NCBI GenBank assembly: GCA_041663165.1
Contig: JBAZRF010000003.1
Span: forward strand, 11,364 to 75,363
Direction: 5' to 3'
Origin: Minisyncoccota bacterium
GTDB taxonomy: Bacteria > Patescibacteriota > Minisyncoccia > Phycocordibacterales > XYD1-FULL-46-19
Length of the DNA stretch: 64,000 nt
A program made the translations under genes and the position numbers. Shown one piece after another: positions 671-42,109 of this stretch (the stretch's first letter is position 1; the number at the start of each line of letters is the position of its first letter). Under the pieces are notes generated by a model. It had not been told where the DNA came from and searched no databases. It saw nothing but the letters and a program-made list of their open reading frames with translations.

Positions 671-2086
671 ATGCTGAAAAATAGAGTGGGGAGAACGATT
701 TTGTTTTTGGTTCTGTCTCTTTTTTTATTCTTTTTGATTTTAAGTTATAGCTTTGCCGACTCTAATTTCTCTAAAGATTTTAACTTAGCCTGGGATCAGT
801 TTGGAACAATTGATTATCGTTCCTCTGACTACTTTAAAAAACAAGATTTAACTTATCGTGATCTGGCCGAAGTTGCCGGAACGGTTGATTTCATTGGCCA
901 GAATTTCATTGGCATCCCGATTAGGGGTAAAGCAGTTTTGGCTGATCTCCAAAAGATGTCCATTAGTCTCTATCAGGATGGACAAATAATAAAAATTTTT
1001 TCCATTGTTTCTATTGGCCAATCGGGATTGCCATGGGAAACGCCTCGTGGCCAGTTTAATATCTTAACAAAAGAAGAAAATCATCAGTCAACGGTTACTG
1101 ACGTGTGGATGCCATACAGTATGCAATTTTTAGGTAATTATTTTATTCATGGCTGGCCGTATTATGACGATCTAACTCCGGTTGGGTTAGGTTTTTCCGG
1201 TGGCTGTATCAGACTAAAGACGATTGATGCCGAAGAAGTTTTTGCTTTTGTCGATCGTGGTACGCCATTGATTGTTGCCGGCAATAACTTACCCGATGGC
1301 TCTCTTGGTCGCTATCTGGCCAAAGACAGAAACTTGTTGCCAACGGTTACTGCCGAAAGTTATCTGGTTGCTGATCTTGATAATGGCGCGGTTATCGTTA
1401 AAAAAAATAGCAAAAAACTTTATTCCATTGCTTCTTTAACAAAACTCATGACTGCCCTGGTCTTTCTTGATCAAGTCAATCCTATTAATCAAATTGTCAT
1501 CGGCGAAGATCATCAAATTATCCCTTATCGCGAGGTGGGTAAACTTGAGACGGGTGAGGTTTTTGTTGCTAAAGACCTGCTTTGGCCCCTGCTTTTGGAA
1601 TCAAGCAATAAGGCGGCTGAAGTCCTGGCCTCTCGCCTTGGCGAAAAAAGGTTTGTTACTGAAATGAATAACCGGGCAAAAACAATTGGTCTGATTAATT
1701 CGGTCTTTGCCGATCCAGCGGGAATTGATGCTCTTAATATTTCTTCGGCCGAAGATTTATTTCGCCTCGCCCGGCATATATTTTTTGAGAAAAATTACAT
1801 TTTTTCGGTCTCTCGTCAGAACAAAATTGCAGTTGCTAGTCATACCTGGCAAAGCTCGAATCCTTTTGTTTCTCGTCCAGATTTTCTTGGCGGGAAGAAT
1901 GGGCAAACCGAAGCGGCGAAGCAAACATCACTTAATTTGTTCGAGTTAAATTTTGGCAACGAAAAAAGGCGAATAGCGATAATTGTGTTAAAAAGCAACG
2001 ACCGCGATGGCGACACCCAAAGGCTACTGGACTATCTGACCAATAACATATACTTTGTTAAGGATGAAAAATTGCCAACCGACTAA
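671..2086 (+). CDS. Fusion protein: N-terminal L,D-transpeptidase (YkuD) domain plus C-terminal D-Ala-D-Ala carboxypeptidase domain
   Basis: N-terminal TM/signal segment. YkuD catalytic region is HGWPYYDD...GFSGGCIRL. Second half has the S11 motifs SIASLTKLM (SxxK), SSNKAAE (SxN) and GGKNGQT. Confidence 0.75.
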   Translation: MLKNRVGRTILFLVLSLFLFFLILSYSFADSNFSKDFNLAWDQFGTIDYRSSDYFKKQDLTYRDLAEVAGTVDFIGQNFIGIPIRGKAVLADLQKMSISLYQDGQIIKIFSIVSIGQSGLPWETPRGQFNILTKEENHQSTVTDVWMPYSMQFLGNYFIHGWPYYDDLTPVGLGFSGGCIRLKTIDAEEVFAFVDRGTPLIVAGNNLPDGSLGRYLAKDRNLLPTVTAESYLVADLDNGAVIVKKNSKKLYSIASLTKLMTALVFLDQVNPINQIVIGEDHQIIPYREVGKLETGEVFVAKDLLWPLLLESSNKAAEVLASRLGEKRFVTEMNNRAKTIGLINSVFADPAGIDALNISSAEDLFRLARHIFFEKNYIFSVSRQNKIAVASHTWQSSNPFVSRPDFLGGKNGQTEAAKQTSLNLFELNFGNEKRRIAIIVLKSNDRDGDTQRLLDYLTNNIYFVKDEKLPTD

Positions 2087-3119
2087 AAATTTTTGGCTAG
2101 ACCTGACCAAGCCCTTTTTTGCTTTGGCGCCGATGTATGACGTGACCGACGCGGCGTTTCGAGCGATGTTTGTAAGACACAGTAAAAGCCGTGCGAAGTC
2201 GGATCTGGCTACGCGAGATACGACTTCGCACGACCTCGTCTTGTTTACTGAATTTGTGTCCGCTGACGGTTTGGCGAGCGAAGCGGGGCGACTGAAGCTC
2301 CGCCGCGAACTTTATTACACGGAGGCCGAACGGCCGATTGTGGCCCAGATTTTTGGCTCTAAACTGGAGAGTATTGAACAGGCCATTAAATTGGTTAAAG
2401 AGCTGGGTTTTGACGGCGTGGACATCAATATGGGCTGTCCCGATCGAGCGGTGGAGAAACAGGGGGCGGGAGCTGCTTTGATTAAAAATCCCAAGTTAGC
2501 GCGAGAAATTATCGCGGCGGCGAAAAAGGCGGCTGGGAAGATGCCCGTCTCAGTGAAAACACGAATTGGTTACAATAAAATAGATTTCGATTGGATCCAG
2601 ACAATTTTAGACGCTAAACCCGATGCGGTTACTTTTCATTTACGTACTCGTAAAGAAATGTCAGACGTGCCAGCGCATTATGAAGTTGTCCCTGAAATTG
2701 TGAGAATTTTTAAAAGCAGTGGCATTCCCATCATAATCAATGGCGATGTGAAGAGTGTTGAGGAGGGTCAAGAATTGGTAAAAAAATACAGTATTGATGG
2801 AGTGATGATTGGCCGAGGGGCGTTTGGGAAGCCCTGGGTGTTCGCTAAAGACGCAGTGCGAAGTCGCATTTCAGGCTCACTTGAAAAACGACTTCGCATG
2901 GCCGTTGAACATTCTAAACTTTTTTGGGATTTATACGGAGATACTCAAACTAACCAAAAACTTTTCAACGGCCACACCAAAAACTTTGCCGTTATGCGCA
3001 AGCATTTCAAAGCCTACGCCTCTGGCTTCAAAGGGGCAACGGCTCTTCGGGCCAAATTAATGCAAGCAAATAATCCCGATGAAGTTGAAAAGATAATAGA
3101 CGAATTCTTGCTGGATTGA
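2064..3119 (+). CDS. dus: tRNA-dihydrouridine synthase
   Basis: FALAPMYDVTDAAFR and INMGCP motifs with TIM-barrel Dus layout. The ORF track starts at TTG 2055; ATG 2064 is the more likely start. Contains two in-frame palindromic inserts. Confidence 0.8.
   Translation: MKNCQPTKNFWLDLTKPFFALAPMYDVTDAAFRAMFVRHSKSRAKSDLATRDTTSHDLVLFTEFVSADGLASEAGRLKLRRELYYTEAERPIVAQIFGSKLESIEQAIKLVKELGFDGVDINMGCPDRAVEKQGAGAALIKNPKLAREIIAAAKKAAGKMPVSVKTRIGYNKIDFDWIQTILDAKPDAVTFHLRTRKEMSDVPAHYEVVPEIVRIFKSSGIPIIINGDVKSVEEGQELVKKYSIDGVMIGRGAFGKPWVFAKDAVRSRISGSLEKRLRMAVEHSKLFWDLYGDTQTNQKLFNGHTKNFAVMRKHFKAYASGFKGATALRAKLMQANNPDEVEKIIDEFLLD
2191..2231. repeat. Palindromic element, family A (GTGCGAAGTCG-GATCTGGCTACGCGAGATA-CGACTTCGCAC), in-frame within dus
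   Basis: Perfect 11-bp terminal inverted repeat. The core recurs at 31558, 33219 and 41833. Confidence 0.8.
2856..2899. repeat. Palindromic element, family B (GTGCGAAGTCGCATTT...AAAAACGACTTCGCA), in-frame within dus
   Basis: Inverted termini GTGCGAAGTCG/CGACTTCGCA. A near copy lies in prmC at 12986-13026. Confidence 0.7.
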
Positions 3120-3189: not shown

Positions 3190-3480
3190 ATGTTTTTAGG
3201 ACTTCGCAGTTGGGTTTGGTGCGTTCTAACGTTCTTGGCTAGGATGGCTTTGGACTGGGACAACGCTGAGCTGGTCAGTTTGTCCGAAATAATCGAAAGA
3301 CTTCACTCTGGCCAGGAGGGCGTGAATCTCGAGTTAGAAGATCGGGAATCTCTCGCCTGTCGACTCGAGGAGCAAGAAGCAGAGTTGCGTGCCAAGGTGT
3401 CTTTGCTTGAGAGGAGGTTGTCTTGGTGGAGGAAGGTTCTCTATCTTCCGAGTCTTTCCGTGACAGGTGGCGGGGTATGA
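3190..3480 (+). CDS. Hypothetical small protein (96 aa, hydrophobic N-terminus plus coiled-coil) in a GC-rich island
   Basis: SD-like GGGAGGG lies 8 nt upstream of ATG. The region is GC-rich, with several overlapping short ORFs on both strands, so coding status is uncertain. Confidence 0.25.
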   Translation: MFLGLRSWVWCVLTFLARMALDWDNAELVSLSEIIERLHSGQEGVNLELEDRESLACRLEEQEAELRAKVSLLERRLSWWRKVLYLPSLSVTGGGV

Positions 3481-3683
3481 GGGATTCTTTTTCTCGGCTC
3501 CTATCCCTATGTCTCGGTGGGGACTCGCGTTGCCCCTCCAAAGCTGAGGCTGAAACTCACAAGGGGCCCAAGATAGACCCTCTCGGTTCGCCGTCCGAGC
3601 CGCAGAGGATTCGCTCCGGCGGCGGGGGAGTTCCTGCCGCCAAGATTGTCGCCTGTTACCGGGCGACTGACCCCGTTTGCGAT

Positions 3684-3720
3684 GCCGTCACTCGTCCCGA
3701 GTGACGGCATTTCGTGATTT
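3684..3720 (+). terminator. Rho-independent terminator-like hairpin (GCCGTCACTC-GTCCC-GAGTGACGGC followed by ATTTCGTGATTT) ending the GC-rich segment upstream of dnaX
   Basis: 10-bp perfect stem followed by a T-rich tract. Confidence 0.4.
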
Positions 3721-3767
3721 ACTATCTACTACTTTTACTCCTTACTACTTGCTGTTATAATCCCCGT

Positions 3768-4805
3768 ATGTCCGAACTAGCCCTTTATCGCAAATATCGT
3801 CCCTCAAAATTTAGCGAGGTCATCGGCCAAGAGCAGGTAACCGGTGTTTTGGAATCAGCCATTAAGCAAGGCAACCTTGTCCACGCCTATCTCTTTGTCG
3901 GTTCGCGGGGCACGGGCAAAACGAGCGTAGCCCGGATTTTCGCTAAAACGATTGGCACTAGCGACAATGACCTGATTGAGATCGATGGCGCCTCCAACCG
4001 CGGTATCGATGAAATTAGAGCCTTACGCTAGGCCGTGCGCACCCTGCCGTTCGAATCCAAGTATAAGGTTTATATTATTGACGAGGTGCACATGCTCACT
4101 AAAGACGCCTTCAATGCCCTGCTCAAAACTCTTGAAGAGCCTCCGGCCCATGTCATCTTTATTTTAGCCACAACCGAACAACATAAAGTTATAGACACGA
4201 TCGTCTCACGTTGCCAAACCTTCATTTTTAAAAAACCAACCAACGAGATTCTTAAAAAAGTTGCCAAAGATATTGCTAAGAAAGAGGGCTTCACTATCGC
4301 CGATGATGTCGCCGATTTGCTCGCTTTTATGGGTGATGGCTCCTTTCGTGACACCATCGGTATTTTGCAAAAAATAATTGGTTCGTCGGCTGACAAAAAG
4401 ATCGCGCTTGAAGAGGTACAAAATATCACTGGCGCGCCACCGCTTAAGTTAGTTTATGATTTAGTCGAAGCGATTGCTGATAATAATTTAGATGGTGCAC
4501 TCACGGTCATTGACCAAACGGCTGAGGCGGGGACAGATTTTAAAATTTTCCTAAAACTCGTAATGCGCGAGATTCGCTTGGCCCTGCTCACCACCATGTC
4601 GCCCACTTTAAAAACTAAAATTTTGGCCGAAGCGGGGGATAAAGAAAAAGAATTTTTCACCACCCTCTCTACCAAACCCGGCTCGAAAAATCTTGCCACT
4701 GCCTTGCGCGAATTTCTCGATACTTATAACCTTCTCGGTGGCAGTTTCTCCCCCCAGATTCCATTAGAGCTAGCGGTGGTGAAAATTTTGGAACCAAAAG
4801 CTTAA
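3768..4805 (+). CDS. dnaX: DNA polymerase III subunit gamma/tau, interrupted by an in-frame TAG at 4029-4031
   Basis: Walker A GSRGTGKTS, then YKVYIIDEVHM and SRC motifs. Both ORF pieces (3714-4031 and 4035-4805) are in the same frame and are separated only by TAG. Confidence 0.8.
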
Positions 4806-5785: not shown

Positions 5786-6190
5786 GATCGCTCCGAGCGA
5801 AACTAAGAGCGCACCAAGGCCGGTTTTCCAAGTGAGGGCTTCGCCGAGAAAGAGAACGGCGAGGACGAGAACAAAAACGACACTTAAGCGATCAAGAGCG
5901 GCCACGGCGGTGGCCGGGCCGTTTTTGAGCGCGCCGAAATAGAAGAACCAAGATAATGCGCCGGCGAGACCCGACAGGGCAATGAAGATCAGAGCTTTGT
6001 TATCAATTTTGCTTAAATCAAATTTACCAAGCGATAGGGCAGCTAACACCAAGGCGACAGCCATAATCACCGAGCGAATAGCAGTGGCGAGCGTAGTGTC
6101 GACATGGCTAATGCCGATTTTGCCAAAGATGGCGACTAGCGCCGCGCAAACGGCCGAAAGGATGGCATAAATAATCCACGAACTAATCAT
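5771..6190 (-). CDS. EamA-like small membrane transporter (DMT superfamily, 4 TM)
   Basis: 139 aa with four hydrophobic helices and an EamA-like pattern. Confidence 0.55.
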   Translation of the reverse strand: MISSWIIYAILSAVCAALVAIFGKIGISHVDTTLATAIRSVIMAVALVLAALSLGKFDLSKIDNKALIFIALSGLAGALSWFFYFGALKNGPATAVAALDRLSVVFVLVLAVLFLGEALTWKTGLGALLVSLGAILLAL

Positions 6191-12722: not shown

Positions 12723-13637
12723 ATGAAGAAAAATAATTTCGATAAAGAAATAACTTGGCTTAAACGTGATCGGCCTGATTATTATGCCCAAGGGATAAAA
12801 AGGCTAAAGACTGGCGAGCCTGTCGACTATGTCATCGGCTGGCGAGAATTTTTGGGCTGTAAAATCGATTTGTCGGCAAAGCCCTTGATTCCGCGCGAAG
12901 AGACTGAATTTTGGGTGGGCGAGGTTTTGAGAAGTTGGACTTCGATGAGCCCGAAGTCCAACTTCGCGAAACCGAACAAAGCGGCGTGCGAAGTCGCATT
13001 TAGTTCCACAAAAAACGACTTCTCACAACCGCTTAGAGTCCTCGATTTGTTTGCTGGTTCCGGCTGCATCGGCCTGGCCATTCTTAAACATATTCCTAAC
13101 GCCCATGTTACTTTTGCCGAGAAAGATCCGAAACTTTGCGAGCAAATTAAAAAAAATCTCTCTCTCTTTCCCCCGACAACCCGTAAGGGTGCCCAAGGGT
13201 TGTCGGGTCGAGCGCGGGTCATTCAATCAGACATTTTTCAAGCTTATCGAAGTCGAACTTCGATAAGCCCTAAAAAGTTGGGGATAAAGTATACAAAAAA
13301 CCCTTATTTATTGAAGTTGGACTTCGTGCAAGAGAAATTCGACGTTATCTTCGCTAATCCACCCTATGCCGCCACTAGCAAAATGAAATTAATTAGCCCA
13401 TCGGTGCTCCAGTGGGAACCGAAAAAGGCGGTGCTTGGTGGCGTTGACGGCTTAACTTTTATCAAAAAATTTCTCAAACAAGCCAAAGATCATTTAAATA
13501 CTAATGGGCGAATTTATCTCGAATTTGGTCAGGGGCAAAAAACGAAAATTGAGAAGTTGATTAAACAGTTCGACTACGCTCACTGCCGATTTCATCGGGA
13601 TCAATTCGGCAAATGGCGCTTCGTGGTGATAGAATAA
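12723..13637 (+). CDS. prmC: Release-factor glutamine N5-methyltransferase PrmC/HemK
   Basis: NPPY motif (FANPPY) and SAM-binding DLFAGSGCIG. About 25-30 aa longer than typical because of in-frame repeat inserts. Confidence 0.8.
   Translation: MKKNNFDKEITWLKRDRPDYYAQGIKRLKTGEPVDYVIGWREFLGCKIDLSAKPLIPREETEFWVGEVLRSWTSMSPKSNFAKPNKAACEVAFSSTKNDFSQPLRVLDLFAGSGCIGLAILKHIPNAHVTFAEKDPKLCEQIKKNLSLFPPTTRKGAQGLSGRARVIQSDIFQAYRSRTSISPKKLGIKYTKNPYLLKLDFVQEKFDVIFANPPYAATSKMKLISPSVLQWEPKKAVLGGVDGLTFIKKFLKQAKDHLNTNGRIYLEFGQGQKTKIEKLIKQFDYAHCRFHRDQFGKWRFVVIE
12931..13026. repeat. Composite palindromic element cluster in prmC (GAAGTTGGACTTCG, CGAAGTCCAACTTCG and a family-B unit)
   Basis: Nested inverted repeats. 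Encodes an extra about 30 aa (WTSMSPKSNFAKPNKAACEVAFSSTKNDFS). Confidence 0.7.
13245..13327. repeat. Palindromic elements in prmC (perfect palindrome TTATCGAAGTCGAACTTCGATAA, then AAAAACCCTTATTTATTGAAGTTGGACTTCG)
   Basis: The second unit is the reverse-orientation copy of the uvrC unit at 41078-41110. Confidence 0.65.
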
Positions 13638-14354: not shown

Positions 14355-14573
14355 ATGGCCACAGTCGAGGGTCACGTTCACGTGACCAAAGAGGAAATGG
14401 ACGCTCTTTGCCAGTGTTCATTCCAAGGTACACCGGATGAGAAGAACGCGCAGGGGACAGCCATTCTTGTTCGGATAAGAGACGAGGGCTGCGCTTCTTG
14501 CCGAACGGCCTGGCAGCGGTACATGGCCTCGCACAAGTGCTCACCCTGCCCGGCGGAGGCATCCAACGTGTGA
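14355..14573 (+). CDS. Cys-rich small protein (72 aa) in a GC-rich cassette
   Basis: Consensus SD GGAAGGAGG lies 6 nt upstream. 8 Cys (CQC...CASC...CSPC). GC-rich compared with flanks. Confidence 0.4.
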   Translation: MATVEGHVHVTKEEMDALCQCSFQGTPDEKNAQGTAILVRIRDEGCASCRTAWQRYMASHKCSPCPAEASNV

Positions 14574-14613
14574 ACCCGTTCTGCGCTCGTCCTACTTCAG
14601 GACCTGCGTGGGC

Positions 14614-14632
14614 GGGTTCTGTTGTTTATGGT
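14614..14632. repeat. Direct repeat; right boundary of the Cys-rich-ORF cassette
   Basis: See 14310-14327. Confidence 0.5.
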
Positions 14633-20117: not shown

Positions 20118-22946
20118 TTATTTCAAATTATCTAATAATTGATTAAGCATTTTAACAAGAATATCTTTGTCTGATTGGGGAATTATTTGCCGGTTGCGCC
20201 AGTGCGGACGATCGGCCAGCCAAACGGTCAATTTTATTCTGCGTTCAACGTTCTTTATTTTTCCTCGCTCGATTAATTTTATCATATTATCGATCCTCGC
20301 TTCTAATAACTTTTCCACTAAAGGCTTAAGGTCAAAACTGGCGACAACCTTTTTCATCATTTGTAAGTAAAGAATTAGATCAAAACCGGTATTTGGTTTA
20401 ACGGCAAAATCATTTTTGCCATCACCATCGGCGTCGATTAATAGAGTTGTCGAAGTTCCAGCCGAGACGTTTAAACTGGCTATCGTCATTGGCGTAACGG
20501 GGATATCGGTAAATGATACAGTTGTAGTACTAACACCATCGGTTGTTTCTTCTTGCTCGTAACTAAAAATACCAAAGCTTAACCCCGCTAATTTTATCGC
20601 ATAATTAGCTGGGGCGAGCCCGTTTCCGAAGGGTAAAACAATGTATTTACCCTCGCCAAAATCAAGATATTTGCTATTAGGGATATCCTCTTCGATCAAT
20701 TGCAAATCTGAATTCGGGTTCGGATTAGGAATAAGCCCAGTGTGATTGCCTAAATTATCATAAGCATTAAGCGAGACGGGCGAATGGACGCTAATGAGTA
20801 AGTTTTTTTGCCCTGCCGTTGGAGTCGGTTTGGCTAGAGAAAAATAATTTGGTAAATCAATAGTGTTTTTGATGAGATTTGTGATTTCTTGTTGCACAGA
20901 GCTCATTTCGAAAATATCTTTATGCACCCAACTTTTATTATTAACCTCATTGTATTTCTGTATATCAAGGTAAAAATCTCTATGACTCCCCACTGCTCCG
21001 GTGGCGCTTGGCGAAACCACCGTCCCGTCGCCGTCGGTGGTGAGGAGGGGGTGGATGTCGAGCTTGTTGTCTTTAGCTAAATACTCGGTGGTTTTGAGGG
21101 TGGGGATGCCCCAACCGGCGATTTGAATTACCTCGGTCGTTGTCGGGAATTGCCAATTGTCGAGGTTATCATGAGTAATCTGACTTTTGGTGAACATTTG
21201 GGAATTTAAAATATTGGGGGTCGCCAGGTTGGTTACCGCCGGTTTGGCTCGGCCGTCAAGTTGACCAAGCGCAAATTGCTGGAGTTTGTCGGCCGATGAA
21301 ATTTCGGTGCCGTAGCTAGCCAAACCGGGCATAATTTTTACCGCTGACTGGTCGAATTTAATTACTGGTTCTTGCACGGTGGCAAAATATTTGGTTGAAG
21401 GGAGGAGATTGTAAGCTGACGGCATATTCTCAACCGCTTGGCGCGCGACCGATTGATTAAGGAGAAAGCCGTAACCTAAGGCTTGATCAGCGCCATGGAG
21501 CATGGTGGGGATAGCTTCAGGCGTGCCGAGTTGTGGTACCGCTACCAAAATTACTTTATCAATTTTGTCGACTAAATCGCTTTGGTTAGAGGTTTTCATT
21601 TCTTGTAATTTTTGCATTAAAGCCTTTGCCACCAAACCCCCGTTTGAGTGGGCAACAATTGTCACCTTGCCATTTTTGGAGCGGTTGGCTAATTTTTGAA
21701 TCTCGGCGATCATGTAGGGAAGTTGTCCGGCCGACAAGTCGGAAGTATAAGAAATACCCTTTGTTGTCGTTGCCCCGCGCGCAACCACTTTATCTAAATC
21801 AAAACGCCAATCATAAGGCAGGGGTTCAAAATCGGCAATATCGCCAGCGGCCACCATTTTATTCATTGATTTGATGAAACCATCATAAATCGGCATGAAG
21901 CCGAGAAAAGCGTTATCAATTACTTCGCGGGTGTAGATTGAAGGATCAACACTCTCGCCAGCGGTCGTCATAAATAATTTACGGGCATCATCGTTGCGGT
22001 TAGGCACCCACAATTCGTTCTCACAATTAAACAACGTGCAACCCGGTTCTTGGCGATACAAGAAGCTGGCTTCGACACCGGGGATAAAAACAACACTTGA
22101 GAAACCGAACGGCGAGGTGGTAAAAGAATTCTCATCACTTACGGTTGGCGGGATAACTGCTGGCGTTTGGCCAATCCAGGGGTCAAAAAGGACATTAGCG
22201 CCAACGATCTTATCACCTAAACCGTTTGGGTTAAGATCGACATGGTAGGGTCCGCTATTATCGCCCCACCAATTATGGCGCGCGTCCATTGCTCGACCAT
22301 AATAGTCTCGCAGGCCAGCCTCGGTATTATGATGAATTTGACTTTGCGTGATATTGGCCGTGCCGTCTATGAAACCAAAACCAACATTATTATTGGTCAA
22401 AATACTGGCGCTGATGGTGGTGGAGCCACTTTCTTGATAAATACCTAGCGGATTGTTGGTTAACTGCGAATCGGTGATCAGTGATTCGCCGCCAGCGGCG
22501 TGGATAGCCGCGCCACCAGAATAAAAACCAGCATAACGAGCGATCACGTGAGCGAAATTAAGATGACCGGTGGCGAGGACATATAATTGATCCCAATCGC
22601 GCATCGCCGGTATGGTGGTGGTGCCATCGCCGTTTGAGTCGCCACTAATCGAATCATCTTTGTAAGAAGTAAAATAAATTTCGTCACCGGTGTTGCCTTG
22701 GGCGCTAAGCTCCCCGTTGATGTAAAAAGCGGATTTATTTTTGAATTTGACAATAGTACCCGGTTCGAGGGCGAGGGTTACGCCGTTATTAATATAAACG
22801 TCATCGGTTATGATGTAGGGGCTAGCAGCTTTGGTCCAAGTGGTATTAGTGCTTAGGCTGGCACCCGAAATTATCGTCTCAGCGAAAAGTGACAGAGGCG
22901 AGCTTAATAAAAGTAACGTTATCAAAAAAATAAATCTTTGAAACAT
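20118..22946 (-). CDS. Secreted 942-aa protein: N-terminal parallel beta-helix repeats, then an alpha/beta-hydrolase (lipase/esterase-like) domain
   Basis: Signal peptide; NxxGxxF beta-helix-like repeats; nucleophile-elbow-like VAHSNGG; long C-terminal region of unknown function. Confidence 0.55.
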   Translation of the reverse strand: MFQRFIFLITLLLLSSPLSLFAETIISGASLSTNTTWTKAASPYIITDDVYINNGVTLALEPGTIVKFKNKSAFYINGELSAQGNTGDEIYFTSYKDDSISGDSNGDGTTTIPAMRDWDQLYVLATGHLNFAHVIARYAGFYSGGAAIHAAGGESLITDSQLTNNPLGIYQESGSTTISASILTNNNVGFGFIDGTANITQSQIHHNTEAGLRDYYGRAMDARHNWWGDNSGPYHVDLNPNGLGDKIVGANVLFDPWIGQTPAVIPPTVSDENSFTTSPFGFSSVVFIPGVEASFLYRQEPGCTLFNCENELWVPNRNDDARKLFMTTAGESVDPSIYTREVIDNAFLGFMPIYDGFIKSMNKMVAAGDIADFEPLPYDWRFDLDKVVARGATTTKGISYTSDLSAGQLPYMIAEIQKLANRSKNGKVTIVAHSNGGLVAKALMQKLQEMKTSNQSDLVDKIDKVILVAVPQLGTPEAIPTMLHGADQALGYGFLLNQSVARQAVENMPSAYNLLPSTKYFATVQEPVIKFDQSAVKIMPGLASYGTEISSADKLQQFALGQLDGRAKPAVTNLATPNILNSQMFTKSQITHDNLDNWQFPTTTEVIQIAGWGIPTLKTTEYLAKDNKLDIHPLLTTDGDGTVVSPSATGAVGSHRDFYLDIQKYNEVNNKSWVHKDIFEMSSVQQEITNLIKNTIDLPNYFSLAKPTPTAGQKNLLISVHSPVSLNAYDNLGNHTGLIPNPNPNSDLQLIEEDIPNSKYLDFGEGKYIVLPFGNGLAPANYAIKLAGLSFGIFSYEQEETTDGVSTTTVSFTDIPVTPMTIASLNVSAGTSTTLLIDADGDGKNDFAVKPNTGFDLILYLQMMKKVVASFDLKPLVEKLLEARIDNMIKLIERGKIKNVERRIKLTVWLADRPHWRNRQIIPQSDKDILVKMLNQLLDNLK

Positions 22947-30810: not shown

Positions 30811-30818
30811 TTAATTTA

Positions 30819-30855
30819 GAAGTCGTACTTCAAGTGAGCCCGAAGTCCGACTTCG
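30819..30855. repeat. Intergenic palindromic elements (GAAGTCGTACTTC then CCCGAAGTCCGACTTCG)
   Basis: Same GAAGTC...GACTTC motif family as the intragenic copies. Confidence 0.6.
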
Positions 30856-30945
30856 AAATTATTTAAACCTAGAAAAAAGAAAACCCGCCACACGCCAACG
30901 GTGGGTTCTCCCAGTGCGTTGATGCGGGGCGGGGACAGGCAGGGG

Positions 30946-31486: not shown

Positions 31487-32548
31487 ATGAAAACAATATT
31501 TTTTGAATTAGAAAATTGGGAAAAAGAGTATATCGAAGCGAGTTCGGGGTCGGATTCGCAAAGTTCGAAATCGGATCTGGCTACGCGAGATACGATTTCG
31601 AACTTTGTTTTTGTCGATGGGATTTTGGATGAGGAGACGGTTGGTAAATTAACAGACGAGCAAAAGGGCACAGATATTATTTCGATTTTTGTTGACTCGG
31701 TAATCAATGCAAAAATTTTGGCGAGTTTTCCCAATCTCAAATTAATTTGCACTCGTTCGACCGGCTATGATCACATTGATATCGAAGCGTGTAAGGCCAA
31801 GGGCGTAGCGGTGGCGACTGTGCCCAGTTATGGCGAAGAGACGGTGGCGGAATACGCTTTTGCTTTAATGCTCACGCTCTCACGCAAAATTTTTGAAAGT
31901 TACGACCGCATTAAAAAGACGGGGAGCTTTGACCTTACCGGCATGCGCGGTTTTGATTTAAATGGTAAAACTCTAGGAGTAATTGGCACGGGCAAGATCG
32001 GCAAAAATGTGATTGAGATTGCCAAAGGCTTTAATATGAAAGTGATTGCTTATGATAAATTCCCCGACGAGGCTTATAAACAAAAAATGGGTTATGACTA
32101 CTTAATGATGGACGAAGTGCTGGCTCAAGCTGATATTTTGACCTTGCATGTGCCCTACCTGCCCGAAAACCACCATTTAATCAATGCCGAAATAATTGCC
32201 AAAATGAAAAAGGGTGTTTACTTAATCAACACCGCTCGCGGAGCGTTGGTTGAGACGGAAGCTTTGCTCAAGGGTCTTAAAGGTGGAGTGATTGCCGGCG
32301 CCGGTTTAGATGTGCTTGAAGAAGAGGGGATAATTAAAGATGAGCTAAACTTCTTGACGGGTGCTCACCCGGGCGAGCACGATTTGCGGGTGGTGCTCGA
32401 AAATCACGTTCTTGTCGATATGCCAAATGTTGTCGTCACGCCCCACAACGCCTTCAACACTTGGGAGGCTCTGCAACGCATCCTCAATACGACGCTTGAA
32501 AATATAAAATCTTTCTCTTCCGGAATGCCGCAAAACGTGGTAAAGTAG
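31487..32548 (+). CDS. D-isomer-specific 2-hydroxyacid dehydrogenase (D-lactate/phosphoglycerate dehydrogenase family)
   Basis: NAD-binding GVIGTGKIG with catalytic R/E/H layout. Carries a family-A palindromic insert near the N-terminus. Confidence 0.8.
   Translation: MKTIFFELENWEKEYIEASSGSDSQSSKSDLATRDTISNFVFVDGILDEETVGKLTDEQKGTDIISIFVDSVINAKILASFPNLKLICTRSTGYDHIDIEACKAKGVAVATVPSYGEETVAEYAFALMLTLSRKIFESYDRIKKTGSFDLTGMRGFDLNGKTLGVIGTGKIGKNVIEIAKGFNMKVIAYDKFPDEAYKQKMGYDYLMMDEVLAQADILTLHVPYLPENHHLINAEIIAKMKKGVYLINTARGALVETEALLKGLKGGVIAGAGLDVLEEEGIIKDELNFLTGAHPGEHDLRVVLENHVLVDMPNVVVTPHNAFNTWEALQRILNTTLENIKSFSSGMPQNVVK
31558..31606. repeat. Palindromic element, family A variant (CAAAGTTCGAAATCG-GATCTGGCTACGCGAGATA-CGATTTCGAACTTTG)
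   Basis: Perfect 15-bp terminal inverted repeats. The core loop is identical to 2191-2231. Confidence 0.8.
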
Positions 32549-32552
32549 CGGA

Positions 32553-33848
32553 GTGAAATTCGAAATACAGAAGAAAATGCAGGCTGGTCTAGGCCGGGCC
32601 GGAGTAATTCATACAGCGCATGGCGATATTGAGACGCCGGCGTTTGTAACGGTGGGGACTAAGGCGACGGTTAAGGCGCTCACGCCCGAGATGGTTAATT
32701 CGCTCGGTGCGCAGGTGGTGCTCGCCAACACTTACCATTTATATCTTCAGCCGGGAGATGAACTGATAAAAAAAGCCGGCGGTCTCCATAAGTTTATGAA
32801 CTACAACGGCCCAGTGATGACCGACTCGGGCGGTTTTCAGGTCTTCTCTCTTGGCGCGGCGTTCGGCGAAGGGGGTATTTCGAAATTTGTTAAAAACTCT
32901 GATAATCTGTGTACAAAATCGTCAAATAAGTCTTATTTTTCGAAATCCAACTTCGAACACGAGGAGGCCATCGTCAAGTTGGCCAAAATTGACGAAGACG
33001 GTGTAACTTTTAAATCAATTATTGACGGTTCGGAGCATCGCTTTACACCGGAGCGGTCGATGCAAATTCAGCATAATCTTGGTGCAGATATTATTTTTGC
33101 TTTTGATGAATGTACTTCACCTCTTGCCGATTATGAATATCAAAAGCAAGCGATGGAGCGAACCCATCGCTGGGCGGAACGGTCTTTGGCTGAACATCAG
33201 AGATTAAACGCCGAAGCTGGTTCGAAGTCGGATCTGGCCCCCACTTCGCCAAGGCTCCGAGGGGTAAATACGCGAGATACGACTTCTAACCCAGCCCTGT
33301 TTGGTATTGTGCAGGGTGGTCGACATCAAGATTTGAGAGAAGAAAGCGCGCGATTTTTGGCCGGATTATGTCCGCCTACTGGCGGATTTGACGGCTTTGG
33401 CATTGGTGGATCATTTAATAAAGAAGACATGGGCACGGCTGTTGGTTGGGTGAGCCAGATTTTGCCCGAAGATAAACCGCGACACTTGCTGGGCATTGGT
33501 GAACCAGCCGATATTATTGAGGGTATTAAAAATGGCGCCGATACTTTTGATTGTGTCACGCCTACCCGGATGGCCCGCAACGGGACGCTAATGGTTAAGG
33601 GTGGAAGACTTAATATCTTTAACGCTCAATATCGCGAAGATTTTGGCCCGATCGAAGAGGGTTGTGGTTGTTACACTTGCCAGCTCAACTCTGATGGCAC
33701 GGCCAAATATTCTCGCGCTTACTTGGCCCATCTCTTTCGCGCGAAAGAAATTCTCGCTTCAACTCTCGCTTCGATTCATAACCTTTATTTTTTGGTAAAC
33801 TTTACAAAACAAATTCGGAGTGATATTTTAGAAAACAGACTTGGCTAA
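32553..33848 (+). CDS. tgt: Queuine tRNA-ribosyltransferase (tRNA-guanine transglycosylase)
   Basis: VMTDSGGFQVFSL, zinc site CGCYTC, ending HNLYF. About 55 aa longer than typical because of two in-frame inserts. Confidence 0.85.
   Translation: MKFEIQKKMQAGLGRAGVIHTAHGDIETPAFVTVGTKATVKALTPEMVNSLGAQVVLANTYHLYLQPGDELIKKAGGLHKFMNYNGPVMTDSGGFQVFSLGAAFGEGGISKFVKNSDNLCTKSSNKSYFSKSNFEHEEAIVKLAKIDEDGVTFKSIIDGSEHRFTPERSMQIQHNLGADIIFAFDECTSPLADYEYQKQAMERTHRWAERSLAEHQRLNAEAGSKSDLAPTSPRLRGVNTRDTTSNPALFGIVQGGRHQDLREESARFLAGLCPPTGGFDGFGIGGSFNKEDMGTAVGWVSQILPEDKPRHLLGIGEPADIIEGIKNGADTFDCVTPTRMARNGTLMVKGGRLNIFNAQYREDFGPIEEGCGCYTCQLNSDGTAKYSRAYLAHLFRAKEILASTLASIHNLYFLVNFTKQIRSDILENRLG
32876..32960. repeat. 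AT-rich palindromic insert in tgt (AAATTTCGAAATTT ... TTTTTCGAAATCCAACTTCGAA)
   Basis: A perfect 14-bp palindrome plus a CGAAATCCAACTTCG unit. Encodes an extra about 30 aa after the FSLG motif. Confidence 0.6.
33219..33291. repeat. Family-A palindromic element with an internal 32-nt insertion, in-frame in tgt
   Basis: TTCGAAGTCGGATCTGGC, then an insert, then CGCGAGATACGACTTCTAA. Confidence 0.75.
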
Positions 33849-40702: not shown

Positions 40703-42109
40703 ATGGAGTCTCGCGACTTAAAAAAATATAGATTACCCGATAGGCCTGGGGTGTACTTTTTTAAACGTCAACGGAAAATTCTTTATATTGGCAAAGCAAC
40801 ATCACTTAAAGACCGAGTGAAGAGTTACTTTGCTGGTGATTTGGGCGAAACACGTGGGCCAAAGATTACCCAGATGCTGGCTTTGGCCAAAAAAATTGAT
40901 TGGCAAGAAACCGATTCGGTTTTAGAGGCCTTATTGTTGGAAACGGAATTAATTAAGAAGCATCAACCGCCTTACAATACCCGCGAGAAGGATGATAAGA
41001 GTTATTGGTATGTGATTATCACCGACGAAGACTTTCCGCGCATTTTGCCCATCCGTGGCCGGGAACTAGAAAACTCAAAAAACCCTTATTTTGCGAAATC
41101 CAACTTCGAATTTGGGCCGTTTCCGTATGGGGCCGAGATGAAAGAAGCGCTTAAAATAATTCGCAAGATTTTCCCGTATCGGGACAAATGTGAGCCTTGC
41201 AAACTACGCGAGGAACGACCTCGGGCGCACTTGAGGTCGCACCTCTCTCCGTTTTGCAAAGCTTGTTTTAATCGCCAGATTGGTTTATGCCCGGGTGTCT
41301 GCACTGGCGAAATTTCGAAAACTGATTATCAAAAAATCGTCAGAAACATCAAATTGTTTTTCGAAGGCAAGAAAAAAGAAGTACTTAAAAATCTTGAACG
41401 AGAAATGAAGATTCTGGCGAAAGAACAAGAATTTGAAAAAGCGAGTAAAACTAGAGATCAGATTTTTGCATTAAATCATATTAGGGATGTGTCATTGCTT
41501 AAGAAGAAAGGACGAGCGGAGAGAGGTGAATCCTCAAGTGAGCCCGAGGTCTCACCTCGCGGAGCTCGTTCTATTAGAATTGAAGCTTACGATATTGCTC
41601 ACCTATCCGGTAAAAATACCACTGGCGCAATGGTGGTGTGGCAAAATGGCGAAATGGATAAAAATGAGTATCGTAAGTTTAAGCTAAAGGGATCAAAAGC
41701 TAATCAACCTGATGACTCGGCCAATTTGCGCGAAATCCTAGAGCGACGTTTTAATCACCCGGAGTGGTCCTTACCAGATATTATTGTGGTGGATGGGAAT
41801 CAGGTGCAAAGGGATGTCGTTGAAGAGGTTTTGCGAAGTCGCATCTGGCTACGCGAGAAACGACTTCTCAAAACGGGCCCTGGCGATGTGAGAAATGCGA
41901 CTTCAAGTGCGCCCGAAGTCGTTTTTCGCACAGAGCCAGAACAAATTAAAGCCATTGCCGTGACCAAAGACGACAGGCATAAGGCTTCTAACCTCATCGG
42001 AGATTCGGCTATTATTCGGGATTACCACCGCCCAATAATTGAGGCCAATGCCGAAGCCCATCGTTTTGCACTGGCCTACCATAGAAAATTACGCCGGCGA
42101 TTGGTATAA
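40703..42109 (+). CDS. uvrC: Excinuclease ABC subunit C (short form, 468 aa, no recognisable C-terminal HhH region)
   Basis: GIY-YIG N-terminus (GVYFF...ILYIGKA), a Cys-rich region and a UvrB-interaction-like region. Carries at least five palindromic-element copies. Confidence 0.8.
   Translation: MESRDLKKYRLPDRPGVYFFKRQRKILYIGKATSLKDRVKSYFAGDLGETRGPKITQMLALAKKIDWQETDSVLEALLLETELIKKHQPPYNTREKDDKSYWYVIITDEDFPRILPIRGRELENSKNPYFAKSNFEFGPFPYGAEMKEALKIIRKIFPYRDKCEPCKLREERPRAHLRSHLSPFCKACFNRQIGLCPGVCTGEISKTDYQKIVRNIKLFFEGKKKEVLKNLEREMKILAKEQEFEKASKTRDQIFALNHIRDVSLLKKKGRAERGESSSEPEVSPRGARSIRIEAYDIAHLSGKNTTGAMVVWQNGEMDKNEYRKFKLKGSKANQPDDSANLREILERRFNHPEWSLPDIIVVDGNQVQRDVVEEVLRSRIWLREKRLLKTGPGDVRNATSSAPEVVFRTEPEQIKAIAVTKDDRHKASNLIGDSAIIRDYHRPIIEANAEAHRFALAYHRKLRRRLV
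41093..41110. repeat. Palindromic unit GCGAAATCCAACTTCGAA in uvrC
   Basis: With upstream AAAAACCCTTATTTT it mirrors the prmC unit at 13290-13327 in reverse orientation. Confidence 0.6.
41216..41250. repeat. Element copy (CGACCTCGGGCGCACTTGAGGTCGCACCTCTCTCC), inverted relative to 41518-41556
   Basis: 30/35 match to the reverse complement of 41518-41552. Also 23/25 to the reverse complement of 41897-41921. Confidence 0.7.
41518..41556. repeat. Element copy (GGAGAGAGGTGAATCCTCAAGTGAGCCCGAGGTCTCACC)
   Basis: Forms an inverted-repeat pair with 41216-41250, about 270 bp away, inside the uvrC coding sequence. Confidence 0.7.
41833..41869. repeat. Family-A palindromic element (GCGAAGTCGCATCTGGCTACGCGAGAAACGACTTCTC) in uvrC
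   Basis: Same core as 2191-2231. Confidence 0.8.
41897..41921. repeat. Element copy GCGACTTCAAGTGCGCCCGAAGTCG
   Basis: The CAAGTG(C/A)GCCCGA(A/G)GTC motif is also present at 30826-30855, 41231-41250 and 41535-41552. Confidence 0.7.

Follow-up and report, generated by a model that had tools for sequence, protein, structure and literature searches.

Short hairpin repeats translated in frame within housekeeping genes of a Candidatus Paceibacterota clade, similar in behavior to Rickettsia palindromic elements

Rickettsia palindromic elements (RPEs) are about 100–150 bp long, with one conserved peptide per family. To our knowledge, the question of how they spread and persist is still open. They were reportedly described by Ogata et al. 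in 2000 as palindromic repeats lying in frame in unrelated Rickettsia genes. RPEs are dispersed, occur in frame in many housekeeping genes, are translated, and have no associated transposase (PMC10969869), and their repeats reportedly become less identical with time (PMC6649704). MITEs sometimes lie within genes and then form in-frame fusions (PMC10969869). A conserved GTAG/CGTC head is described for the REP superfamilies (PMC3733652). The byp elements of fungi are skipped by the ribosome (cited in PMC6649704).

The window, i.e. the whole 64-kb stretch of DNA analyzed here, contains 12 related hairpins according to a covariance-model (CM) scan and BLAST. Eleven of them lie within five housekeeping genes and one is intergenic; the unfiltered CM scan of the window yielded no members beyond these 12. 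The units range in length from 33 to 75 nt and have the consensus ends GTGCGAAGTCG...CGACTTC(T/G)CAC. They were assigned to families A, B, C, D, and E, which have the arm motif GAAGTCG/CGACTTC in common and differ in loop and inner stem. The units are listed here together with the dus gene and one probable remnant.

2055..3119, + strand: dus (tRNA-dihydrouridine synthase; Pfam Dus, E=4.9e-59; 354 codons), host of A1 and B1
2190..2232, + strand: A1, family-A hairpin, CGTGCGAAGTCG-GATCTGGCTACGCGAGATA-CGACTTCGCACG, 12-bp perfect arms
2856..2899, + strand: B1, family-B hairpin, GTGCGAAGTCGCATTTCAGGCTCACTTGAAAAACGACTTCGCAT, 10-bp perfect arms, eleventh pair G/T
12923..12973, + strand: C1 in the prmC-like methyltransferase gene (12723-13637), GAGAAGTTGGACTTCG-ATGAGCC-CGAAGTCCAACTTC; fold −33.3 kcal/mol, z = −7.8; CM match
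12986..13026, + strand: B2, second family-B copy, prmC-like gene; fold z = −3.2; CM 37.8 bits
13234..13276, + strand: D1, prmC-like gene, GCTTATCGAAGT-CGA-ACTTCGATAAGC; fold z = −6.9; weak CM match
30812..30861, no strand assigned: intergenic C/E-type copy, GAAGTCGTACTTC-AAGTGAGCCC-GAAGTCCGACTTC; fold z = −6.4; CM 35.8 bits
31559..31607, + strand: A2 in the D-LDH-like gene (31487-32548); fold −30.6 kcal/mol, z = −7.9
32940..32958, + strand: probable decayed remnant in tgt, TCGAAATCCAACTTCGAAC, peptide SKSNFE
33218..33292, + strand: A3long in tgt (32553-33848), family A with a 30-nt nested hairpin at the apex; fold z = −3.9
41200..41250, + strand: B/E-like hairpin in uvrC (40703-42109), GAGGTC/GACCTC arms; fold z = −3.2
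41510..41570, + strand: E-like hairpin in uvrC, loop AAGTGAGCCC, own outer stem GGACGAGC/GCTCGTTC; fold −34.3 kcal/mol, z = −4.9; weak CM match
41831..41871, + strand: A4, family-A copy in uvrC, read as LRSRIWLREKRLLK; fold z = −5.9; CM 66.9 bits
41880..41932, + strand: E1, family E, directly after A4 in uvrC, read as DVRNATSSAPEVVFRT; fold z = −3.4

All 12 copies folded far better than shuffled sequences (z −3.2 to −7.9), with stabilities between −20 and −34 kcal/mol. Across the copies in and beyond the window, CM scores formed a continuous spectrum from 74 down to about 25 bits, taken as a spectrum of ages. The 33-nt A motif had three window matches at ≤3 mismatches compared with none in 100 shuffles, and GTGCGAAGTCG had eight at ≤1 mismatch, where 0.69 were expected. 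Every window match of the terminal 11-mer was located within a short hairpin unit and none flanked a transposase. GAAGTCG and its complement occurred 19 times in the 64 kb. A strict hairpin census yielded 46 hairpins in 338 kb (3 in shuffled sequence), 41 of them within open frames of at least 450 nt; k-mer enrichment under a maximal-order Markov model was uninformative for these motifs. Related genomes differed widely in copy density: the 64-kb window has 12 hairpins, and stretches of 9, 21, and 7 kb have 6, 1, and 0, respectively. The hairpins are dispersed repeats of ~35–75 nt that form one superfamily, including both dus units, and are restricted to one clade of Candidatus Paceibacterota (CPR/Patescibacteria). 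The B and E families have an identical loop with exchanged arms, for which no explanation was found.

A resemblance to RPEs had been proposed for the dus units in an earlier note on this DNA. It stands as an analogy of behavior and, judged by length and host, not as membership, the units being 3–4 times shorter and from an unrelated phylum. Both are palindromic dispersed repeats in frame in unrelated genes of a small-genome bacterium, at positions that the protein fold tolerates. No transposase is associated with either, and how they are mobilized is not known in either case. However, the units of 33–75 nt are read in up to five frames, whereas an RPE family corresponds to one peptide, and the hosts are Patescibacteria rather than Alphaproteobacteria. 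The families described here also differ from RPEs in being modular, with shared arms and exchangeable loops, and in containing nested elements, their stems kept by compensatory change.

With the REP/REPIN-RAYT systems the units share the format of 20–40-nt imperfect palindromes with conserved mismatches and many copies per genome. A family-specific sequence conserved far beyond neutral expectation, with the hairpin as probable recognition unit, is common to both. REPs are extragenic by definition, whereas 41 of the 46 census hairpins lie in open frames and 11 of 12 are intragenic in the window. The GTAG/CGTC head is missing from the units, and no RAYT gene turned up among the window ORFs or in a weak tblastn search over 475 kb that did not cover whole genomes. 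MITEs (Correia/NEMIS, ERIC, and Coxiella QMITEs, among others) are non-autonomous repeats with terminal inverted repeats as well, but are usually 50–500 bp long, with target-site duplications and a cognate IS that shares their ends. These three features were not evident here, as far as the uncertain insertion boundaries and the DNA searched allow, and the units are essentially the hairpin alone.

The coding palindromes of Nematomorpha mitochondria are likewise stable hairpins in translated sequence with actively maintained arm pairing and dynamic gain and loss (PMC6649704), and in both cases template switching or arm conversion may be the mechanism. They are, however, long local inverted repeats of conserved coding sequence and not a short family dispersed across genes and genomes. 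The GC clusters, double-hairpin elements, and byps of fungal mitochondria are also small mobile hairpins invading the coding regions of compact genomes. The units described here are bacterial, chromosomal, in frame, and free of stops, a constraint indicating that, unlike byps, they are translated. DNA uptake sequences (DUS/USS), which are 9-12-mers present about once per kb on both strands and arising by point substitution rather than insertion, were rejected, as the motif-bearing hairpins are the 12 units, insertions of 36–75 nt relative to orthologs.

For dus, the earlier note had described two hairpin units within the reading frame. No stop and no frameshift was found in the 354-codon ORF, and the unit sequences were as described, with perfect arms in A and arms perfect over 10 bp in B. 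The Dus protein is 100% identical to P0001, annotated as "Candidatus Paceibacterota bacterium". A1 is read as RAKSDLATRDTTSH, a 14-residue insertion that is missing in most Dus orthologs and forms a disordered loop in the AF2 model (pLDDT <50 for residues 47–57). B1 is read as VRSRISGSLEKRLRM and is predicted to be helical (block-mean pLDDT about 86–89 in the AF2 model). Compared with empty-site orthologs, its net gain is only about 6–7 residues, and its right half occupies the position where the native helix begins in these orthologs. The description as "inserted" is therefore fully valid for A1 and only partly for B1. RNA folding placed both units far below the shuffles (A1, −30.4 kcal/mol, z = −7.4, CM 68.3 bits; B1, −27.6 kcal/mol, z = −6.5).

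The A core had further been reported in four unrelated genes, and was found in dus at 2195, in the D-lactate-dehydrogenase-like gene at 31567, in tgt at 33220, and in uvrC at 41835. It encodes KSDLATRDT in dus, D-LDH, and tgt and RSRIWLREKRL in uvrC. Family B is translated as VRSRISGSLEKRL in dus and CEVAFSSTKNDF in the prmC-like gene, where B2 is read as CEVAFSSTKNDFS in a frame unlike that of B1. A motif search beyond the window confirmed that many further copies exist. About 37 copies of the 33-nt A core were retrieved at roughly 30 distinct places in metagenome contigs; because an exact 25-nt pattern was used, their high identity is partly due to the retrieval. Of the copies with arms (n=37), 23 were sense, 9 antisense, and 5 intergenic. 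Those in genes used five of the six reading frames, the unused frame containing TAG; one tgt copy in the TAG frame has CAG in place of TAG.

At least 15 unrelated genes, their identities judged by eye from translated ORFs, contain the A core. The hosts include ComEC, TsaE, TrmH, XerC/D, UvrB, PolA, Tgt, RNase HII, TsaD, enolase, cysteine desulfurase, Fmt, UvrC, Dus, and D-LDH. Read in its various frames and on either strand, one DNA family encodes up to five different peptides, and every intragenic copy examined was in frame without a stop. SDLATRDTTSH and VRNATSSEPEVVFR are further examples of element-encoded peptides. The occurrence in both orientations, in five of six frames, and in at least 15 unrelated genes indicates a DNA repeat and not a protein motif, in line with the mobile or recombining mini-element proposed previously. 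A contig scan of species representatives, not including the window's own genome, was performed with perfect 11-bp arms and proved too strict. Only two true relatives, L003 and L006, were found; the remaining matches were attributed to chance in GC-rich genomes or to an unrelated repeat in a "Bacteroidota" MAG.

In alignments of Dus, D-LDH, and Tgt orthologs, the units appeared as lineage-specific insertions. The Dus alignment, which could have refuted the earlier proposal, supported it: distant orthologs lack the element peptides, and close relatives encode them with near-identical nucleotides. Of the 40 closest Dus orthologs, 22 carried element peptides, and beyond those 40 the number fell to about zero, which points to restriction to the clade. 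The D-LDH site of A2 is empty in ortholog P0128, and in tgt exactly 75 nt are missing in the empty ortholog in L056. A3long is a 25-residue insertion in Tgt, without counterpart in solved TGT structures, and the A core is split there by the nested 30-nt insert. Among D-LDH orthologs with 76–87% identity, a single site was found empty or carried A, long-A, C/E-type, tandem, or arms-only alleles. Hot spots turned over quickly among close relatives, where remnant and flipped alleles occurred beside empty, A, long-A, C/E-type, and tandem ones, with two turnover sites each in Tgt and Dus. In orthologous alkylation-repair genes, A was located at the same codon in opposite orientations.

The remnant in tgt sits in a second Tgt insertion of about 40 residues, and similar remnants were found at 41094-41108 (uvrC) and 13308-13326 (prmC-like gene). 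An 18-nt partial direct duplicate of the A2 left arm is located upstream of A2 at 31541-31558. Empty/filled comparisons for dus, D-LDH, and tgt revealed no evident direct repeat, with uncertain boundaries since the orthologs are 66–84% identical at the protein level, and no clean empty/filled pair within one population was seen. As neither a target-site duplication nor such a pair was seen, movement is inferred from distribution. Native GAAGT/GACTTC as a sequence directing insertion fits the D-LDH empty site and not the two dus sites, and so is not a general rule.

Between species, the elements were far better conserved than their host genes. Identities of 40/42, 40/42, and 47/48 nt were determined for host genes with 71, 67, and 76% identity, respectively, corresponding to 95–98% for the elements compared with 67–76% for the genes. 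Third codon positions of these genes were 44–53% identical. B1 matched the copy at the same dus site in P0013 at 40 of 42 nt (gene, 67%), and A2 matched the P0121 copy at 47 of 48 nt (gene, 76%). A C/T mismatch flanking the core was conserved in 30 of 35 copies. In the stems, 80.5% of cells were paired compared with 72.3% in shuffles and 30–41% in slid registers. The covariation score was 0.231 (0.101 in shuffles), a value reached by 0 of 500 shuffles. Copy-specific outer stems of at least 4 bp were present in 59% of copies and in 7% of mismatched controls. A2, for example, has compensated arms (GAAATCG/CGATTTC) and its own 8-bp outer stem CAAAGTTC/GAACTTTG. The stems are kept by compensatory changes, including copy-specific stem extensions. 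A host function could likewise account for compensatory changes in the stems combined with a 33-nt core that is almost perfectly conserved across genera.

Searches for a mobilizing gene were negative within their limits. No transposase was found among the 45 window ORFs (Pfam), and an IS608 TnpA query gave no tblastn match over 475 kb, which is a weak test since whole genomes were not covered. Viral contigs and phage and plasmid collections contained no copies. With gathering and with relaxed thresholds, the only Rfam matches were sub-threshold ones to generic hairpins of the miRNA-precursor type. Element peptides joined into one query gave no candidates in the protein database, and a literature search no report of such elements in CPR/Patescibacteria.

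The units are probably non-autonomous selfish palindromic elements that are translated in frame and are RPE-like in behavior but, judged by length and host, not related to RPEs, with an inferred mechanism of movement. The data show that the units are repeated, occur in varied frames and orientations, are lineage-specific insertions, turn over at hot spots, keep their stems by compensatory change, and are far better conserved in nucleotide sequence than the host genes. As proposed here, copies would land in many places, or be converted into them, and most of these places would be genes since the genome is about 90% coding. Survival would be limited to copies that are free of stops and lengthen the gene by a multiple of three bases, mostly in tolerant surface loops and linkers as far as this could be checked, and these would be translated as extra, mostly hydrophilic peptide segments. 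An occupied site may then become a hot spot for family replacement, apex nesting, tandem duplication, flip, internal deletion, and loss. Spread is inferred to proceed via the folded single-stranded hairpin, possibly through an unidentified trans-acting enzyme specific for both sequence and structure, analogous to the HUH/Y1 transposases that act on REP or IS200/IS605 hairpins. Template switching during replication, or gene conversion in which copies pair via the shared arms, could act instead or in addition, and arm-to-arm correction may keep the stems paired and extend them.

A more far-reaching version, which we consider unlikely but compatible with the data, is that the units represent a novel type of mobile DNA, no more than a hairpin of ~33–45 nt spreading without a cognate transposase, or moved by a novel structure-specific enzyme confined to the clade. 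Preferred entry into the apex or arms of existing hairpins would account for nested copies and hot spots, and for the swapping of families and the flips in orientation at the same codon. Arm-to-arm conversion would keep the element "alive" and extend the stem into host sequence. If this were true, the elements would continuously generate variation in loop length in the essential proteins of these ultra-small CPR bacteria.

A function for the host, either as sites bound by a conserved DNA- or RNA-binding protein (nucleoid organization, or gyrase/IHF-type as for REP/BIME) or as mRNA structures tuning stability or translation, is improbable on the present data. It would account for a 33-nt core that is 95–98% identical between species with a gene identity of about 70%, for stem maintenance by compensatory substitutions, and for the one intergenic copy, which lies directly past the ppdK stop codon and is terminator-like between convergent genes. 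However, presence, family, number, and orientation vary at one site among orthologs with 76–87% identity, so that no individual copy is indispensable. With 23 sense and 9 antisense copies, both orientations relative to transcription occur and the RNA loop sequence is not constant. The very unequal density between related genomes (12/64 kb to 0/7 kb) and the common decayed remnants also argue against it. Origin of each palindrome on the spot by template switching (quasi-palindrome correction or inverted duplication), without any mobility, is very improbable. An identical 33–41-nt core with an asymmetric loop in at least 15 unrelated genes of several genomes makes an independent origin at each site impossible. 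Such template switching can explain stem extension and maintenance but not where the copies come from, and would persist at most as a secondary process. In its favor, the outer stems are copy-specific and sometimes pair with native flanking codons, the right halves of B1 and A2 are like native sequence in empty orthologs, and template switching with arm conversion has been discussed for the coding palindromes of Nematomorpha mitochondria (PMC6649704).

Removal or skipping of the segments at the RNA or translation level, by intron-like excision or by bypass as in Magnusiomyces mitochondria, is hardly credible, even though the hairpins are very stable and palindromic bypass elements are known in yeast mitochondria (cited in PMC6649704). 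Untranslated inserts would be under no frame or stop constraint. The intragenic copies examined are all in frame and free of stops, with the TAG frame of A avoided and TAG replaced by CAG in one tgt copy, and bypass or intron-like inserts were rejected on these grounds. A shared functional peptide module, suggested by hydrophilic peptides recurring in several proteins, conflicts with three to five peptides being encoded by one DNA according to frame and strand, and with the predicted disorder of the A1 peptide. An assembly artifact conflicts with the presence of copies in independent JGI, ENA, NCBI, and Logan assemblies. We regard both as practically negligible.

As probable selfish translated repeats, the elements extend a phenomenon earlier known mainly from Rickettsia, selfish DNA inside reading frames, to a second, unrelated group with reduced genomes. 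The load of about one copy per 5 kb, in enolase, polA, uvrB, tsaD, tgt, and other genes, is unexpected for genomes that have been described as streamlined. The elements may explain part of the unexplained short insertions in CPR proteins and are relevant to marker-gene alignments, phylogenomics, and gene calling in CPR MAGs. They are also fast-evolving strain markers. Their tiny size, modular families, cross-genus conservation, and stem maintenance make them a tractable system for the spread and persistence of hairpin repeats.

Some minor observations concern the junctions and the distribution of single units. The E1 peptide and unit are also present in many Dus orthologs. The resemblance of the right halves of B1 and A2 to the native sequence of empty orthologs is anecdotal. 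Equally anecdotal, outer stems seem to pair with native flanking codons at the tgt and D-LDH junctions, which is suggestive of host-derived outer stems. In the XerC/D copies, however, the outer stems fall inside the inserted segment.

Units A1 and B1 both lie within a single unbroken ORF (2055-3119) encoding a tRNA-dihydrouridine synthase (Pfam Dus, E=5e-59), as the earlier note had claimed in describing two palindromic units that leave the dus frame intact. The repetition of their sequences was not due to chance. The 33-nt A motif was matched three times in the window with up to 3 mismatches (0 matches in 100 shuffles), the terminal 11-mer eight times with up to 1 mismatch (0.69 expected), and the 17-nt core three times (0.06 expected). 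These motif searches, together with a fourth copy in tgt interrupted by a 30-nt insert, also bore out the reported presence of the family-A core in four genes. BLAST with the units, inspection, and an unfiltered scan with a covariance model (CM) built from 35 A copies were concordant and gave 12 related hairpins in the window.

Related hairpin units in the window (A-E denote hairpin families)
2190-2232, plus strand: A1, in dus, CGTGCGAAGTCG-GATCTGGCTACGCGAGATA-CGACTTCGCACG
2856-2899, plus strand: B1, in dus, GTGCGAAGTCGCATTTCAGGCTCACTTGAAAAACGACTTCGCAT
prmC-like methyltransferase gene: C1, B2 and D1
30812-30861: one copy, intergenic, directly past ppdK
D-lactate-dehydrogenase-like (D-LDH) gene: A2
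tgt: A3long
uvrC: copies at 41200-41250 and 41510-41570, A4 and E1

Each of the 12 units formed a single strong hairpin (−13 to −34 kcal/mol, z −3.2 to −7.9). The arm motif GAAGTCG/CGACTTC (variants GAAATCG, GAGGTC, and GAAGTTG) is common to the families, and the loops differ: family A carries a TAC triloop atop an imperfect inner stem, and in B, C, and E the loop is the 10-nt AAGTGAGCCC or its complement. Over the full stretch, 79 60-nt windows reached an MFE of −25 kcal/mol or lower, compared with 12 in a codon-shuffled control. Immediately upstream of A2, an 18-nt imperfect direct duplicate of its left arm was observed (31541-31558 versus 31562-31579, AGTTCGGGGTCGGATTCG versus AGTTCGAAATCGGATCTG); it adds SSGSDSQ to the D-LDH-like protein and is absent in P0121, the closest ortholog with an A unit.

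The A unit is translated as KSDLATRDT in dus, the D-LDH gene, and tgt and as RSRIWLREKRL in uvrC of the window, and the B unit as VRSRISGSLEKRL in dus and CEVAFSSTKNDF in the prmC-like gene. Across the window and the metagenome copies, the same DNA occurs in several frames, in both orientations, and in unrelated genes, which upholds the proposal of a mobile or recombining mini-element in place of a conserved protein motif. Searching public metagenome contigs for the 25-nt A core yielded 37 loci. An arm-inclusive census with ORF context, taking in these loci, the additional locus L057, and the window, counted 37 copies, with 23 in sense orientation, 9 in antisense orientation, and 5 located in short spacers between genes. 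The A copies used five of the six frames; the unused sixth contains TAG, and in one tgt copy in the TAG-containing frame CAG replaces TAG. Hosts, named by eye from ORF translations, were ComEC, TsaE, TrmH, XerC/D, UvrB, DNA polymerase I, Tgt, RNase HII, TsaD, enolase, cysteine desulfurase, Fmt, a DNA-alkylation-repair protein, Dus, D-LDH, and UvrC. A strict hairpin census of 338 kb of related DNA found 46 elements versus 3 in shuffled sequence, 41 of them within open frames of at least 450 nt. Because this share is close to the assumed coding fraction of such genomes (∼90%), coding sequence appears not to be avoided.

Intergenic A copies at four loci (L018, about 3853-3905; L028; L049; L025) formed a subgroup with constant flanks (...TAA/GAAGTCG...CGACTTC/GGGGAAA...ATG, slashes marking the hairpin ends), the hairpin lying exactly between a stop codon and the apparent ribosome-binding site and start of the gene that follows. 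The A inner core (TCGGATTTGGCTACGCGAAAAACGA, peptide FSSIGFGYAKNEEF) was also seen without the GAAGTCG/CGACTTC arms in one gene of another, unidentified organism, present in seven assemblies (L020, L022, L031, L037, L038, L048, and L050), and may represent an ancient copy that has become fixed.

The Dus protein of the source organism, a Candidatus Paceibacterota bacterium, is 100% identical to the ortholog P0001, the nearest other orthologs being 64-70% identical. An alignment of 36 Dus orthologs revealed two hypervariable positions, both empty in distant and many close orthologs and otherwise filled by A (AKSDLATRDTTSH), antisense A (VRSRFSRSQMRLRT), E (VRNATSSEPEVVFRT), antisense E (RKTTSGSLEVAF), B, or combinations. 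The idea that the dus units are lineage-specific insertions held for A1, a 42-nt addition at the DNA level relative to the empty sites of orthologs P0013 and P0009, and placed in a disordered loop (residues 47-57, pLDDT <50) in the AlphaFold Dus model (mean pLDDT 89.8). It held only in part for B1, which lies in a helical linker of the model: about 6-7 codons were gained, but the right half stands in for the native SL-KEKL helix start. Of the 40 closest Dus orthologs, 22 contained element-derived peptides; beyond these, essentially none did, so the family is, as judged from these sequences, confined to one clade.

Other host genes contained similar sites. Exactly 75 nt corresponding to A3long were missing from an empty tgt ortholog, and solved TGT structures lack any equivalent of this Tgt segment. 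At one N-terminal site of D-LDH, orthologs only 13-24% divergent carried six allele types (empty, A, long A, a C/E-type unit, a tandem pair, and an arms-only mini-palindrome). In Tgt of five species, two hot-spot sites held composite units, nested and in tandem, with folding energies of −63 to −74 kcal/mol. In two DNA-alkylation-repair orthologs (70% identical), a whole 41-nt A occupies the same codon but is oppositely oriented (L029, about 1069, minus strand; L045, about 947, plus strand); the element was either inverted in situ or inserted independently at precisely this site.

Elements shared between species were identical at 40/42, 40/42, and 47/48 nt, compared with 71%, 67%, and 76% for their host genes, where third-codon-position identity was 44-53%. 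In the 35-copy alignment the hairpin was 80.5% paired; shuffles gave 72.3% and slid registers 30-41%. The covariation score of 0.231 (0.101 in shuffles) was reached by 0 of 500 shuffles. Double compensatory variants occurred in the core arms (GAAATCG/CGATTTC and GAGGTCG/CGACCTC). Flanks beyond the conserved core also pair, by copy-specific sequences, with outer stems of at least 4 bp in 59% of copies versus 7% of controls. At some junctions an outer-stem arm coincides with native codons, which suggests, on anecdotal evidence, stem extension by arm-to-arm conversion. The CM scores of further copies formed a continuum between 74 and about 25 bits, and decayed remnants were also present, consistent with a birth-and-death process.

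The evidence best supports a superfamily of selfish palindromic mini-elements that are non-autonomous and whose movement is inferred. Because one identical asymmetric core is scattered across many genes and genomes, neither local de novo formation nor a protein motif nor an artefact can be the sole origin. Removal of the segments at the RNA level or bypass by the ribosome is argued against by the constraint on the elements to be in frame and stop-free. A host function, for example as a protein-binding site, remains possible, but is argued against by the dispensability of individual sites and by a very uneven density among relatives (12 copies/64 kb, 6/9 kb, 1/21 kb, and 0/7 kb).

Under the mini-element explanation, selection would keep frame-preserving insertions, most of the checkable ones lying in tolerant loops or linkers, and turnover is rapid at sites already holding an element. 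The mode of copy movement is likewise inferred. The extreme core conservation suggests that a sequence- and structure-specific factor would recognise the core, by analogy with RAYT/Y1 transposases acting on REP or IS200/605 hairpins. Family swapping, apex nesting, and orientation flips at one site suggest that copies would exchange through their shared arms, with template switching; such a mechanism has been considered for coding palindromes (PMC6649704). No transposase was found among the 45 window ORFs, and no Y1-transposase-like sequence in 475 kb (a weak test, tblastn with an IS608 TnpA query). No clear target-site duplication was found in empty/filled comparisons of dus, D-LDH, and tgt, where boundaries are uncertain and orthologs diverged. 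Viral contigs and phage and plasmid collections contained no element copies, and no Rfam family matched the elements.

The closest analogue is the Rickettsia palindromic elements (RPEs), which are in-frame insertions in many unrelated genes (PMC10969869). The resemblance drawn in the earlier note stands for this property, which the present units share. It does not extend to size (the present units are 3-4 times shorter), to frame usage (several reading frames), or to the hosts, which belong to an unrelated phylum; with these differences and without sequence comparison, membership is not claimed. The present units do not fit the definitions of REPs or Nematomorpha palindromes or, as far as observed, that of typical MITEs. 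They are intragenic and lack the GTAG/CGTC head of REPs; they have no observed target-site duplication or cognate IS and fall below the usual MITE size; and they are dispersed copies, whereas the Nematomorpha palindromes are local inverted repeats (PMC6649704). No account of elements of this kind in CPR/Patescibacteria emerged from full-text literature searches.

Unrelated further families of small coding palindromes occur in the window and its relatives. In the prmC-like gene, a palindrome at 13170-13212 (CCCGACAACCC...GGGTTGTCGGG) encodes PPTTRKGAQGLSG, and "LPAGRQ/SAQGR"-type inserts (CTGCCGGCAGG-like palindrome) are present in Tgt, PolA, D-LDH, TsaD, and Dus of relatives (other coding-palindrome families: loci L033, L034, and L043; proteins P0006, P0145, and P0150). 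Very stable intragenic hairpins (−30 to −34 kcal/mol) outside the GAAGTCG superfamily lie at 5876-5935 (EamA transporter), 14566-14625 (5′ end of an HI0933-like flavoprotein gene), and 21006-21065 (large LCAT-domain protein). The MAG "Bacteroidota bacterium USDV_maxbin.037" contains a different 55-62-nt repeat, mostly outside long ORFs, which shares the 11-mer GTGCGAAGTCG with the Paceibacterota elements and also has tandem ACTTCGCAC motifs (L002, L004, L007, L010, L011, L012, and L016). The D-LDH-tgt gap is only 4 nt in the window, compared with a spacer at 6994-7274 of L056, a relative, in which a terminator-like hairpin comes after a tRNA-like 3′ end (GGTTCGAGTCCGGCC...).

Downstream of dus, the interval of about 520 nt before dnaX (3190-3713) is GC-rich and very strongly structured, with 60-nt windows down to −34 kcal/mol and a perfect 13-bp hairpin at 3682-3710. 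It contains no convincing ORF and has no Rfam match, even at relaxed thresholds, and may be an undescribed structured RNA. The dnaX gene itself (DNA polymerase III gamma/tau, 3714-4805) has one in-frame TAG at 4029-4031 (...EIRALR-stop-AVRTLPF...) separating two ORFs in the same frame (3714-4031 and 4035-4805). The L055 ortholog is uninterrupted at 345 residues; the interruption may be due to a sequencing error, to pseudogene status, or to stop-codon readthrough.
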